A stretch of 45,729 nt of DNA from a virus, in the IMG/VR virus record IMGVR_UViG_3300027852_000009, positions 1 to 45,729 of that record; one strand, given 5' to 3'. The translations under genes and the position numbers were made by a program. Numbering within the stretch: position 1 is the stretch's first letter; every line of letters starts with the position of its first letter. Of this stretch, positions 662 to 35,649 are shown piece by piece. The notes below the pieces were generated by a model. The model worked only from the letters and a program-made list of their open reading frames with translations, did not search any database and was not told the origin of the DNA.

Positions 662-3600
662 ATGTCCGACCAACTGCTGCGCCTTGAACAAGGCATCAGA
701 GCGGCACATGAAGCGGGCAATGCAGAACACGTCAAGGTACTGGGGGCGGAATATCGCCGCCTTCAGTCCGAGATGTCTGCACCTGCCCCTGAACCTGCCC
801 CAGAACAAAAAGCTGCTCCTGCAACTGGCTTTGGTGACGCCCTCCAATTTGGATGGGACAACGCTGGCCGTAACGTGGGGGGTGGCCTCGAAAGTATCGG
901 TGAACTTCTTGATTGGGATGCTGCGAAGATCGTAGGCAACCACCAGAAGACAACCAACCAGCGTGAAATCGACGCTGCGAATTACTCCCGCCCTGAGGGT
1001 GCTGATGGCGTCCTTACAAACCTCATGCAAGGCGACTTAGCCAATGCTGGGAAGTCCCTCGGCTATGCTGCTGCTGAGAGTGGACCATCAATTGCAACTG
1101 GTGCCTTAGCATCTGGCGCTGCTGTAGCAAGTGGCCCTGTGGCCCTCGGAACCGCTGTTCTGGGTACTGGCGCAACTGCGCTCCAAGCACTCGGTGAGAA
1201 CCGACAGGAGAAGGTAGAGAAGGGTCTCGACCCAACAGCCACATACACAGACCTCGCCTCGGCTGTAGCCTCTGGCGCTGTTGAACTCCTGCCACTCGGT
1301 AAAGCCGGTGGTGGTTTCACTTTGAAGTTCACAAAGGAAGGTCTGCAAGAAGCTGGACAAGAAGGTCTGGTTATCGGTAGCACTGCTGTCCAAGGTGGTG
1401 AATATGTCCCTGAGGAAATCGCCAATCGTCTAGGCGAAGCCTTCGTCGTCGGTGGTGCAATCTCTAAAGGTATGGACGCGACCGTGAACACTGCTGGCAA
1501 AGTTGCTGGTGCTGTTGTTCCAAGCCGAACAGACAACCGGGAATTCACTGGTGACGAAGTTGCTGCTGCTGAACGTATCAAACGTCATGCAGATGGTAGT
1601 GATAAAGTCCTTGGAAACGTCAACGATGATGGGGCAGGGACAGCCAAAGGCGCAGCCAACGCAGCCCTTAGGGAAGCCCGTGCTGAAGCTGAAGCACTCA
1701 CTGCTGATCTGAAGGCAGTTGCCAAGATCACCGATGGTGCTGGTGACGCTGATGTAGCCCTCAAATCACTGGGAAAGATCAAGAGTCACCAAGGGTCAAC
1801 GACCTCTGAACACGCTCTGGATCGTGTTTCTACCGCCCTTCCAGACAACACTGATGTTGCTCGTCTCCGGTCAGTCCTGAAAGAGATTGATGCAATTCAG
1901 GAGTTCACTAAAGGCTCCGACAACGACATGGGTGGCGTATCACGCCTTGCCAAGAAACTTGATCCTCTGGACAAGCGGAACAATAACGCCTTTGGGACAC
2001 ACGCACTTCTCGCTGGTGGCCTTGTCCGTGGCTCTGTTGCCAGTGCTATGGCTATCCCAATTGCAATCAACCGGGCCTCCCGCGTTCTGGATCGTCTGAC
2101 TAATCGCCGGTCTCGTGTGAAACGCTTTGTTGATAGTGCCAAGAAGTCTGGAACCGCTGCAACGCAGATTGATGGACCGACATCTGGTGACATCCTGACG
2201 AAGCTGAAGACTGACCAAGCTGCTATCAAGATGGCAGATGCAAATGCCAAGGTAGCCAAAACTGCACAATCGGACGCCCAGAAGGCCCACATGGCCTATG
2301 AGAAGGCAATGGGCACAAATATCCCTCAAGGCCCTGTGACCCCCCGTAGACCGGCTGACATAGCCCGTCAGGCACAAATGGCTCAACAAGCTGGCATTCC
2401 ATCAGTCCGTGAAGTGACTATGAAGGCTAGAGCAGAGAAAGCTGCCTTGGATCAATCCAATGCAACCTCCCAGGACGCCCGTGGTCTGAAGGCCCAGAAC
2501 CAATTGGCGACTGAACAACAACGTGCCCAAAAGCTGGCCATGTCCCAACAAGCCTTGGACAAGACCCAAGCTGCTGCCCAGCGCCAGACCGAAATGAATA
2601 AAGTCATCTATGACGAAATGTTCAGAACCGGGAAGGTGCCTGAAGGACGTGCGTTCAAGACGTATCAGTTGATGGAACATGCCACAGGTATGAACCCCAA
2701 GAAGGCCGCTCAGACACTCGATCTGCTGGCTCAAGAGGGTCTTATTGACCCAATGATTGCTGAGAAGTTTAAGACTGACCCTGATTGGTTCGCAAATAAC
2801 CCAAAGGATGCCTACAAGGCCCAAGAACTGGTCCGACAGGCTGCTAACCCTGAATACACCGCCCCCCCATTTGTGAAGGACAAGGCGAAAGCCCCCGTAC
2901 ACCCTGACGAGGTTCTGAGGAAGCTGGAAATGGCCGCTGCACGTCCGACATCAAGTCGTCGGAAGCAGAAGGCAATGGAAGGTGATCTGAGGTACAAGCG
3001 TATCCTGCAAGAGATTGCCAAAGCTGAAGGCTCACTGCCCACAAACCAATACAAAGGTTTGTTGCAACTGGTCGAAGAGATGAACCGCCCAGATAGCAAT
3101 ATCACAGACAGGTACACCCTGATCAGCGAGGGCCTGGACATCATCTTTGATGGTAACCCAGCAATGAAGGCATTTTGGGACCGTAAGCTGGCCCCTCTGG
3201 CCGCTATCGGAAACGATCAACGAATTCACCACGCCAAGGTGGAAACCGATCCGGTTCAGGATCAAATGGAAGTCGCCTTTGAAACGAAGGTGAAGAAAGC
3301 TAAGAAGCGAAAAAAGAAACCGGAACTCCCGAAAAAGCCCTCACAAGAGGTGCCAATTACGCAAGAGCCGGATGCCCCTGCTGTAACCCCAGCGGAGAAG
3401 GCGCTCAAAAAGCTGAACAAACCCACACCTGAACCGGAACCTGCCTTGGATCAGTCCAACGCAACCACGACACAGGACCAGCAGGAACCCGTCAAGCCTG
3501 TCAAAACGAAGGCAAGGAAGACCCTGAAGGACCGTACTGATGCTCGTATTGATGACCTGCACTACATGGTCTATCTGGCCGAGACTGAAGGCGACAACCT

Positions 3601-35307: not shown

Positions 35308-35649
35308 TTAGGTAGTGGTTGGGTGGCCTTTTCTGATCTTGGTAAGAACTCCCGAGATTTCAGCAAGGCTTCGCTTGTCGAACAACGCCTCGTAAACCTC
35401 AGGCGAATACTCATATAGGCATCTGAGTGACCAGTCAGCTTTGTCCATGTGCAGAATGTCTGCGATACTCCGCCACAATGATGCAGGAATTGAGACATAG
35501 CCTAATTCCATCTGACTAATCATTGTGTAGTATTCCAAGTCAAGGGCATCAGCTAGTGCCTTTTGTGTGTATCCTTGGGCTACTCTGGCGTCTTTCAACC
35601 GCTTGCCTAAATTTTCACGGTTCTTCTGCTTTCTTTCTTCTGATAACAC
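35308..35649 (-). CDS. XRE/Cro-CI family helix-turn-helix regulator
   Basis: LGKRLKDARVAQGYTQKALADALDLEYYTMISQMELG. GTG start with GGAGGGG 6 nt upstream. Adjacent to int. Confidence 0.85.
   Translation of the reverse strand: MLSEERKQKNRENLGKRLKDARVAQGYTQKALADALDLEYYTMISQMELGYVSIPASLWRSIADILHMDKADWSLRCLYEYSPEVYEALFDKRSLAEISGVLTKIRKGHPTTT

Follow-up and report, generated by a model that had tools for sequence, protein, structure and literature searches.

Virion-delivered RNA polymerases (RNAPs) are known from a few lytic lineages, namely the N4-like, crAss-like and jumbo phages. The virus record IMGVR_UViG_3300027852_000009 of IMG/VR (positions 1 to 45,729; this whole stretch of 45,729 nucleotides is here called the window) raises the question of whether such an enzyme may also occur in a small genome that carries an integrase. 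An original prediction, made from the letters of the window, had proposed a putative virion RNAP (vRNAP), a heterodimer-type T7-like RNAP and a lysogeny module. From the analysis presented here it is reasonably likely that the window represents an uncultured temperate podovirus of Rhodobacterales, in which a T7-like early and replication arm is combined with a head and tail of the SU10/LUZ24 type and with an ejection cassette bearing an RNAP. The folds and motifs of both RNAPs, the split point of the second one, the synteny across the clade and the presence of integrated relatives with junctions at the predicted place are directly supported.

Because its ends share an exact 23-bp overlap (1-23 = 45707-45729), the window is a circularly closed assembly of 45,706 bp and a complete genome. 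An independent assembly of the same phage, an ENA contig of 45,748 bp, carries the same genes, and the phage was also seen in JGI and SRA data.

RNA polymerase domain of the largest protein

The largest protein of the phage, of 1767 amino acids (aa), has the following parts:
662..5965, plus strand: ejection-type protein with C-terminal RNAP, 1767 aa (PHROG 414, family alignment, AlphaFold2 (AF2) model with Foldseek)
662-2311, plus strand: N-terminal helical module, aa 1-~550 (homology to RNAP-less proteins)
aa ~550-960 of the same protein, plus strand: K/P/Q-rich linker (composition)
3539-5962, plus strand: RNAP domain of the T7/mitochondrial type, aa ~960-1767, 808 aa (profile and fold)

The C-terminal domain of this protein is a genuine single-subunit RNAP of the T7/mitochondrial type. 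The PHROG 414 profile (RNA polymerase) matches aa 1222-1476 with an E-value of 4e-24. In an alignment of 25 family sequences six catalytic residues do not vary: R1223 of T/DxxGR, D1379 of motif A (DAKNNAYQ), K1450 and Y1458 of motif B, and H1692 and D1693 of motif C; R1223 and the H1692-D1693 pair align to T7 R425 and H811-D812. When the family profile was compared with the PDB, T7 RNAP was the sole match (E-value 1.5e-6), with no sequence match to the N4 mini-vRNAP. The AF2 model of aa 960-1767 (pLDDT 89.6, pTM 0.85) was matched by Foldseek over its full length to T7 and mitochondrial RNAPs (E-values 8e-17 to 1e-13, TMq 0.50-0.56), in alignments of ~800-960 columns that take in the right-hand fold with its N-terminal promoter-binding domain. 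The RNAP thus modelled appears to be complete and is predicted to be catalytically competent. The protein of the window does not reach the threshold for Pfam PF00940 (none at E≤0.01); a precomputed PF00940 match is present in 10 of 24 full-length homologs.

In BFVD, the model is matched by T7-like RNAPs with E-values of 1e-21 to 1e-14 and by fragments of N4-like vRNAPs with E-values of 1e-11 to 1e-5. Two viral proteins with an RNAP fold similar to that of the large protein, A0A6J5NLE6_2 and A0A7S5FRK7, were also found there, one being a fragment of a long protein with 25% identity and the other having 1463 aa and a TMq of 0.66; these may be further mid-size virion RNAPs of other phage groups.

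A HMMER search over 1.84 billion representative proteins gave 54 relatives, nearly all of 1650-1970 aa and with the polymerase at the C-terminus, none being of ~3500 aa. The next matches were ordinary proteins of 700-900 aa, presumably T7-like RNAPs, with marginal E-values. In none of the 40-odd family members does the RNAP occur unfused; the proteins have 1650-1970 aa. The 1767-aa protein had no tblastn match in phage genome records, and a relaxed tblastn search with its RNAP domain recovered only ordinary T7-like RNAPs (21-26% identity).

The ejection cassette

Upstream of the large protein lie two genes, the second of which is cut by the window ends:
43810..44745, plus strand: ejection protein, 311 aa, upstream of the SLT gene (PHROG 4287 'DNA ejection protein', E-value 2e-18)
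44747..45729, plus strand: SLT (lytic transglycosylase) protein of the ejection cassette, 536 aa, 5′ part (Pfam SLT, E-value 3e-17)
1..651, plus strand: 3′ part of the SLT protein in the joined open reading frame (ORF), continuing at 24-651 after removal of the overlap

With the overlap removed, the ORF cut by the window ends rejoins to encode the 536-aa SLT protein; since it is split in this way, the SLT gene (44747 over the wrap to 651) escapes ORF listing. Relatives have an SLT gene of 544-561 aa at the same position. The start of the 311-aa gene at 43810 comes after a TIR motif, a palindrome described below.

The N-terminal ~550 aa of the large protein are 36% identical to proteins of ~1,100 aa that lack a polymerase in their C-terminal half. 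In a 39.7-kb TARA phage scaffold (L023), such an RNAP-less homolog (4399-7728) occupies the identical slot, the order there being a 344-aa protein, a 517-aa protein, the RNAP-less homolog, a small-terminase-like gene, the large terminase (TerL), an SU10-type portal, scaffold and capsid. The gene for the large protein lies between the SLT ejection protein and the terminase in all relatives for which the context was inspected. Because its first 550 aa are common to RNAP-less proteins in this same slot, the 1767-aa protein is most likely an ejected protein. It is free of Cys and includes two hydrophobic stretches rich in G/A, aa 143-178 and 447-469. The AF2 model of its N-terminal module (aa 1-560) is all-helical with a pLDDT of 77.6, and nothing in Pfam or NCBIfam matches this module.

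The three adjacent genes (311 aa, 536 aa with SLT, 1767 aa) have the arrangement of an outer-membrane-channel, periplasmic-tunnel and inner-membrane-channel (OMC-PT-IMC) cassette. That of the structurally related Pa223 (Bruynoghevirus) has the same order of a ~310-aa, a ~500-aa and a large protein, and its gp56 of 313 aa, the outer-membrane-channel candidate (bioRxiv 10.1101/2025.06.11.659172), is equivalent in size and position to the 311-aa protein. The gp52-gp51-gp50(vRNAP) cassette of N4 is also parallel in order and sizes.

The RNAP-less sister proteins (P0025-P0054, ~1,100 aa) share the N-terminal ejection module with the large protein. In the C-terminal half of P0025 there is an HExxH-like motif (HEIAHG), the consensus of the RNAP-less family being LHExAHA. 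This suggests a carrier role for the large ejection protein, with cargo domains that can be interchanged.

The split RNA polymerase

The second RNAP is encoded on the other strand by two genes:
33013..33840, minus strand: 275-aa small subunit of the split T7-like RNAP, corresponding to the N-terminal domain of T7 RNAP (RPOL_N)
31239..32981, minus strand: catalytic subunit of the split T7-like RNAP, 580 aa (PF00940)

The 275-aa protein matches Pfam RPOL_N (E-value 4.5e-8) and positions 8-246 of the PHROG 414 profile. The 580-aa protein matches PF00940 with an E-value of 8e-87; its alignment to T7 RNAP covers residues 318-882 and shows intact motifs A, B and C (DGSCNGAQH, KRSVMTVPYG, IHDSFG). 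As the two polypeptides correspond to RPOL_N and to T7 318-882, the enzyme is cut where the N-terminal domain meets the thumb. The RPOL_N gene lies upstream of that for the catalytic subunit in all relatives; the split is kept in more than 70 homologs of 555-606 aa, and unsplit relatives of 780-840 aa are met only below ~39% identity. The closest cultured RNAPs, at 31-34% identity, are those of T7-like phages of Ralstonia, Pseudomonas, Delftia and roseobacters. Against PHROGs the split RNAP scores 1e-152 to T7-like and 5e-42 to N4-like profiles.

The RNAP of the large protein and the split RNAP of the same phage were aligned by hhalign with a probability of 97% (E-value 8e-11) and 22% identity over 379 columns; they are therefore homologous but anciently diverged, not recent paralogues.

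The integrase and integrated relatives

Directly upstream of the RNAP genes the phage has the following:
34098..35192, minus strand: tyrosine integrase, 364 aa (Pfam Phage_integrase, E-value 2e-17; PHROG 1)
35308..35649, minus strand: XRE/HTH_3 regulator, 113 aa, in a cassette with int (Pfam, PHROG, NCBIfam)
33841..34147, no strand: putative attP region including flanking repeats (junctions of relatives and repeat statistics)

The catalytic R..HxxR..Y of the integrase is legible in the translation (GVRLQEA, HSCRDT, LGH...QKYA). The tyrosine integrase with its XRE regulator at 34098..35649 and the heterodimer-type T7-like RNAP at 31239..33840 had both been proposed beforehand; the Pfam and PHROG matches and the catalytic residues confirm the former, as RPOL_N, PF00940 and the intact motifs do the latter.

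Homologs of the integrase with 56-64% identity lie at island/tRNA junctions in Rhodobacteraceae (Ruegeria and related genera). Four such loci (L016-L019, Ruegeria and related; 56-58% identity) are tRNA-flanked islands rich in defence genes, including AIPR, EcoRII-like, SMODS and RloB/AAA, and in two of them (L017, L018) an HTH_3 gene lies just upstream of the integrase. Since the closest int homologs are on defence islands and two of these loci have the HTH_3 gene as well, XRE-int looks like a portable cassette exchanged between phages and such islands.

A search of bacterial genomes for this sequence as a prophage, suggested in the original prediction, was run on the relatives and found three integrated members of the clade, with phage genes intact: in Pseudogemmobacter lacusdianii CPCC 101601 (187-kb scaffold JAVDBT010000008.1, at ~103-149 kb, where the large protein has 1707 aa and the small ejection protein ~317 aa), in Paracoccus sp. 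(255-kb contig JAUNTW010000004.1) and in a 60.6-kb metagenomic contig (ENA k119_64321). In all three, host genes, among them gyrA, sox genes, ruvX and hydrolases, are found directly upstream of the RPOL_N gene, the place that int occupies in the free forms (the window, L008 and L009). As host DNA adjoins RPOL_N exactly where the free forms carry int, attP is placed between int and the RNAP small-subunit gene, probably at 33841-34097. An int gene or integration was seen in at least nine genomes of the clade, which appears to be temperate. Short contigs with the same int terminate at internal repeats, not at alternative junctions.

A hairpin that is not a tRNA lies at the centre of the attP region (34053-34023), and tandem GGGACACGC-type repeats at 34147-34128 and 33903-33884, ~130 bp either side of it, are read as putative integrase arm sites. 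At the equivalent spot, L008 (free) and L005 (the Pseudogemmobacter prophage) have a tRNA-Tyr-like 3′ fragment (T-arm, acceptor stem, ACCA), recognised by eye only; ARAGORN reported no tRNA in seven related loci (L001, L003, L005-L009). Rfam gave only chance matches at the attP region.

The sequence GGGGNCACGYTATGGGACAC was considered as a promoter and rejected. It was reread as a probable integrase arm-type site because two copies flank attP ~260 bp apart and because homologous integrases on non-phage islands have a related box after their stop codon; a third copy at 40176-40195 is unaccounted for by this rereading. The control region at 40176-40220 repeats two pieces of the attP arm (33952-33884), GGCCACGCTATGGGACAC and AACTGACCTGCTA, in the opposite order, and these may be a binding site common to the control of integration/excision and to the early/late switch.

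Promoter-like elements and the control region

The genes of the phage form two arms, which diverge at a control region of ~950 bp (39.9-40.8 kb) and converge at 18.2-19.1 kb. The minus block runs from 39871 to 19134 and the plus block from 40820 over the wrap to 18158, in agreement with the bidirectional order described earlier. Four promoter-like sites were located:
35209..35227, minus strand: T7-type promoter-like 19-mer GGGACAATACTTAGACACA, inside a 39-bp repeat (35192-35230) immediately 5′ of int
31210..31228, minus strand: second copy of the 19-mer, directly behind the 3′ end of the RNAP catalytic gene, within a 39-bp repeat (31193-31231) and oriented towards the replication genes
38757..38775, plus strand: variant 19-mer GGGACAATACTTGGACACA, antisense to the 290-aa early gene and pointing to the structural genes
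39939..39957, plus strand: variant 19-mer on the border of the divergent control region, directed towards the structural block

The 19-mer GGGACAATACTTRGACACA has four copies where 0.01 would be expected and, together with the downstream ...CACTAGGAG, is similar to the T7 promoter consensus. The two rightward sites flank the 290-aa gene, and the upstream one (38757) would read antisense through it. Relatives have different T7-consensus-like repeats at the same two positions (ACGTACTCACTAGAGGAAG in L008, GGACTGACACAGGG in L005), as expected of promoters that co-evolve with a phage polymerase. Which polymerase reads which promoter we infer. Sigma70-like leftward promoters lie before the early genes at 38651-38623, with a homologous copy at 40134-40107.

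The 39-bp direct repeat is exact, its copies being 4 kb apart, and brackets the int-RNAP operon; it holds the 19-mer and a Shine-Dalgarno sequence. Short public contigs of the phage break at it.

The TIR palindrome TTGGA-N4-TCCAA occurs at 28 sites in the window (for example 5985, 12989, 33852, 38530, 40796 and 43784), with 21 strict copies where chance would give about 0.04. In many cases it is extended to CTCC...GGAG, and its usual place is 9-16 nt ahead of start codons, in both arms. The element is kept across the clade (L009, L013, L010, L001, L004, L006) and is absent from non-phage loci. As its 5′ arm decays in the relatives without compensatory change and the 3′ half TCCAAAGGA(G) stays, a simple model of a selected RNA hairpin is not supported. 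In a comparison with the hairpin-form early promoters read by the vRNAP of N4, the palindrome is abundant but lies at translation starts genome-wide and shows no compensatory changes. The element may serve in translation initiation, be bound by a protein or act like a stoperator, or be a signal for a polymerase.

The 290-aa gene (38999-39871, minus strand) is the first of the leftward arm, has counterparts of 298-318 aa at the same position in relatives and is ended by a strong intrinsic terminator (38984-38961). Its product was considered as a repressor and has no match in Pfam, PHROGs, NCBIfam or the PDB; the gene is a candidate lysis/lysogeny switch gene.

Relatives, host and comparison with known phage groups

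About 40 sequence clusters of such phages were found, all of them unannotated. A vRNAP-like protein and a split RNAP are together on contigs of 42-46 kb in several assemblies and also in P. lacusdianii CPCC 101601. As this dual-RNAP architecture recurs in at least seven related genomes, it is not a product of chance or of chimeric assembly. The prophages, the integrase relatives and a holin of the gene transfer agent (GTA) type point to Rhodobacterales (Paracoccaceae, roseobacters) as the probable hosts of the clade. A search for near DNA, with 25 kb against 50,697 phage records, returned only a ThyX fragment with 73.9% identity to an oyster-associated phage. None of the deposited phage genomes was found to have a homolog of the large protein. 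Searches of the full-text literature gave no description of this architecture; StenR_269 and PhiGT1 were checked as possible cases of the same system and are different.

The N4-like phages (Schitoviridae) have in common with this phage a three-gene ejection cassette whose largest protein contains a polymerase of the single-subunit family, a second phage RNAP of two polypeptides (N4 RNAPII gp15/gp16) and genes for podovirus morphology. Unlike theirs, the large protein has 1767 aa instead of ~3500, lacks a C-terminal domain after the RNAP and shows no detectable sequence similarity to N4 vRNAP, its fold being nearer to T7-like RNAPs; the genome is of 45.7 kb compared with 59-80 kb, and replication is T7-like. 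The heterodimeric second RNAP characteristic of Schitoviridae is present (275 + 580 aa), but it is nearer to T7-like than to N4 RNAPII profiles. Membership in Schitoviridae fails on protein size, affinity of sequence and fold, genome size and replication genes. Since the RNAP of the large protein is closer to T7-like enzymes than to N4 vRNAP, the description as an N4-style dual-polymerase layout appears apt as a functional analogy and not as membership: as a relationship it is contradicted by the BFVD matches, the missing match to N4 mini-vRNAP and the lack of ~3500-aa relatives. The accompanying premise that vRNAP phages are strictly lytic is dated, as integrase-bearing and integrated N4-like genomes have been reported (PMC10654107; PMC13434306). 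Lysogeny together with a virion polymerase is therefore not unprecedented in principle (PMC10654107).

The temperate marine T7-like podoviruses (HTVC019P-type pelagiphages, cyanophage P-SSP7) and LUZ100 resemble the phage in placing int immediately before the RNAP gene where the early arm starts, and in having a T7-like single-stranded DNA-binding protein (SSB), primase-helicase, DNA polymerase and exonuclease, and T7-type promoters. In relatives, integration takes place beside or into tRNA genes (bioRxiv 10.1101/410191; PMC12753301; PMC10134795). In contrast to them, the phage has its RNAP in two genes, a bidirectional gene order and a second RNAP joined to an ejection protein, and its head, tail and ejection genes are not of the T7-like type. 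A genome-encoded single-subunit RNAP (here split) and T7-like replication genes are traits of Autographiviridae that it shares; the one-strand gene order and T7-type structural genes of that family are replaced by two divergent arms and by genes of the SU10/LUZ24 type. Membership in Autographiviridae fails on gene order and on all structural genes.

Bruynoghevirus (LUZ24/PaP3/Pa223) and SU10-type phages share the portal, capsid and adaptor families (portal 26-28% identity) and an ejection cassette of ~310, ~500 and at least 1000 aa, but their large ejection protein bears no RNAP domain, and they lack both a phage RNAP and an integrase. The marine podoviruses of ~40 kb represented by the TARA scaffold L023 have the identical structural gene order and a homologous N-terminal module, but their large protein, of ~1,100 aa, has a C-terminal half with no relation to RNAP. 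The phage would seem to represent a compact virion-RNAP strategy that was put together independently, in a new lineage of temperate podoviruses.

Proposed infection cycle and alternative explanations

Upon infection, the ejection proteins would exit the capsid and the N-terminal helical and hydrophobic module of the 1767-aa protein would remain at the envelope, with the tethered polymerase refolding in the cytoplasm and beginning to transcribe the incoming DNA. This transcription would help to pull the DNA in and/or express the first phage genes, with the host RNAP at entry as another possible agent or as a partner. The split RNAP (275 + 580 aa) would then be produced from the int-RNAP operon and transcribe the replication and structural genes from the T7-type 19-mer promoters. 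As an alternative fate, the genome would be integrated by the tyrosine integrase through attP between int and the RNAP small-subunit gene; the mode of prophage silencing we infer.

Several points weigh against this reading. Foldseek gave no significant PDB match for the model of aa 1-560 (best E-value 0.44), so that homology of the N-terminus to T7 gp16 or to the N-terminal domain of N4 gp50 is not established by the model, and packaging of the 1767-aa protein in the virion is still deduced, from synteny and domain sharing; of the putative virion RNAP at 662..5965, the polymerase is borne out by PHROG, motifs and fold, and its virion location has the standing just given. The sigma70-like promoters suggest that host RNAP could transcribe the early genes as in T7, leaving the ejected RNAP with no proven essential role, and only one class of clear T7-type promoter was found, with no sign of two promoter specificities. 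On the side of lysogeny, the attP centre of the window is not a tRNA fragment according to ARAGORN and Rfam, a blastn-short comparison of its attP with the int-tRNA junctions of related integrases gave chance-level words in place of an attB, and the central hairpin, sought as an exact pattern in the JGI metagenome collection, was not found there. The junctions of the three prophages were read at the RPOL_N side.

Transcription drives DNA entry in T7, and the RNAP of an ejected 1767-aa protein might likewise serve mainly as a motor that reels the genome in, with host RNAP acting early and the split RNAP carrying out all phage-specific transcription. The sigma70-like promoters ahead of the early genes, the likeness of the early arm to the T7 class I region (ArdA anti-restriction, then RNAP genes) and the single class of T7-type promoters would fit this. 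It is nevertheless considered unlikely, as sigma70-like matches are not enriched over shuffles (7 found, 9 expected), a motor would still require promoters, and the full-length Foldseek alignments indicate that the RNAP domain retains the whole N-terminal promoter-binding region of the fold. That the 1767-aa protein is not packaged at all, being a late, cell-resident second RNAP or a replication-priming polymerase that is merely encoded in the structural operon, would agree with an N-terminal module that has no recognisable fold match; it is very unlikely given that this module is common to RNAP-less proteins in the ejection slot of related phages, that the gene keeps its place between SLT protein and terminase with the RNAP always fused, and that the protein has hydrophobic segments and no Cys.

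The integrase-bearing marine T7-like podoviruses were long assumed to be effectively lytic, and here too the integrase/XRE cassette might be a passenger: it is portable and also found on the non-phage defence islands of Ruegeria and relatives, the attB of this phage was not found by junction comparison or the JGI hairpin scan, and no CI-like repressor was identified. This is quite unlikely in view of the three integrated clade members, in which the genes are intact and the junction falls precisely on the int/RNAP boundary, the intact catalytic residues of the integrase and the nine or more genomes with int or integration. The mosaic affinities (T7-like replication, SU10/LUZ24-like head), which the original prediction had already remarked upon, could also come from a chimeric assembly of a T7-like phage and an unrelated podovirus. 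This is hardly credible, as the independent ENA contig has the same genes, the vRNAP-like protein and split RNAP are co-located in at least six other assemblies and on the scaffold of an isolate genome, composition is uniform and the TIR motif is spread over both arms; the mosaic is that of the phage.

Beyond the favoured reading of a temperate podovirus with an ejected RNAP, it is possible, if doubtful, that a family-level temperate clade evolved the N4 trick independently by grafting a T7-lineage RNAP onto an inner-membrane ejection protein, with the TIR element as a dedicated control layer. If so, a lysogenic phage would inject its own transcriptase, and the TTGGA-N4-TCCAA(A)GGAG element, which stands before about half of the genes, could block or recognise phage polymerases, silence the prophage and exclude superinfecting relatives that bring an active polymerase. 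A compact T7-lineage RNAP of ~800 aa on an ejection protein with an RNAP-less sister would be a snapshot of the origin of a vRNAP by domain fusion. How a prophage is kept silent and immune when virions bring one polymerase and the genome encodes another is a regulatory puzzle, and the prophages are real in cultured Paracoccaceae (Pseudogemmobacter lacusdianii CPCC 101601 and Paracoccus sp.). The group, so far unclassified, would be defined as one of Rhodobacterales phages, and its naturally split T7-type RNAP and small self-contained RNAP may be of use in synthetic biology.

Other features of the genome

The G+C content is ~51% over the window with uniform composition, and ARAGORN found no tRNA genes in it. 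The minus arm starts with the 290-aa gene, its terminator and small early genes including one for an ArdA anti-restriction protein, followed by the XRE/HTH_3 and integrase genes, the two RNAP genes and the replication genes, and ends with ThyX, MazG and ribonucleotide reductase. The replication module was annotated as follows:
24184..30665, minus strand: T7-like replication module (Pfam and PHROG matches)
30048-30665, minus strand: gp2.5-like SSB
29608-30051, minus strand: RusA
27603-29297, minus strand: gp4-like primase-helicase, likely start a GTG at ~29114
25495-27321, minus strand: family-A DNA polymerase
24184-24960, minus strand: 5′-3′ exonuclease

The gp2.5-like SSB, gp4-like primase-helicase, family-A polymerase and exonuclease are those named in the original prediction. 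The mechanically set starts of the ORFs at 27603-29297, 30668-31006 and 43714-44745 are probably too far upstream; starts based on the TIR motif give a 503-aa primase-helicase (489-500 aa in relatives), a 68-aa protein and the 311-aa ejection protein. The nucleotide-metabolism cluster at the end of the arm (19134-22742) consists of ribonucleotide reductase (568 aa), a MazG-like pyrophosphohydrolase and ThyX.

The plus arm starts with tail/virion proteins, followed by the 311-aa ejection protein, the SLT protein and the 1767-aa protein, a probable small terminase and then the genes of the head:
6694..13603, plus strand: head module of the SU10/LUZ24 type (PHROG matches)
6694-8304, plus strand: TerL (PHROG)
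8315-10324, plus strand: portal (PHROG)
10667-11692, plus strand: scaffold (PHROG)
11702-12589, plus strand: major capsid protein (PHROG)
13013-13603, plus strand: adaptor (PHROG)

Orthologs of the head proteins in relatives bear the Pfam families SU10_portal, SU10_MCP and SU10_adaptor, and the nearest cultured portals are those of LUZ24-like phages and HTVC106P (26-29% identity). The arm ends with a collagen-repeat tail fibre, an endolysin and a holin. In the tail-fibre gene (13552-15666), 9-nt periodic repeats at 15029-15262 correspond to collagen-like Gly-X-Y tracts.

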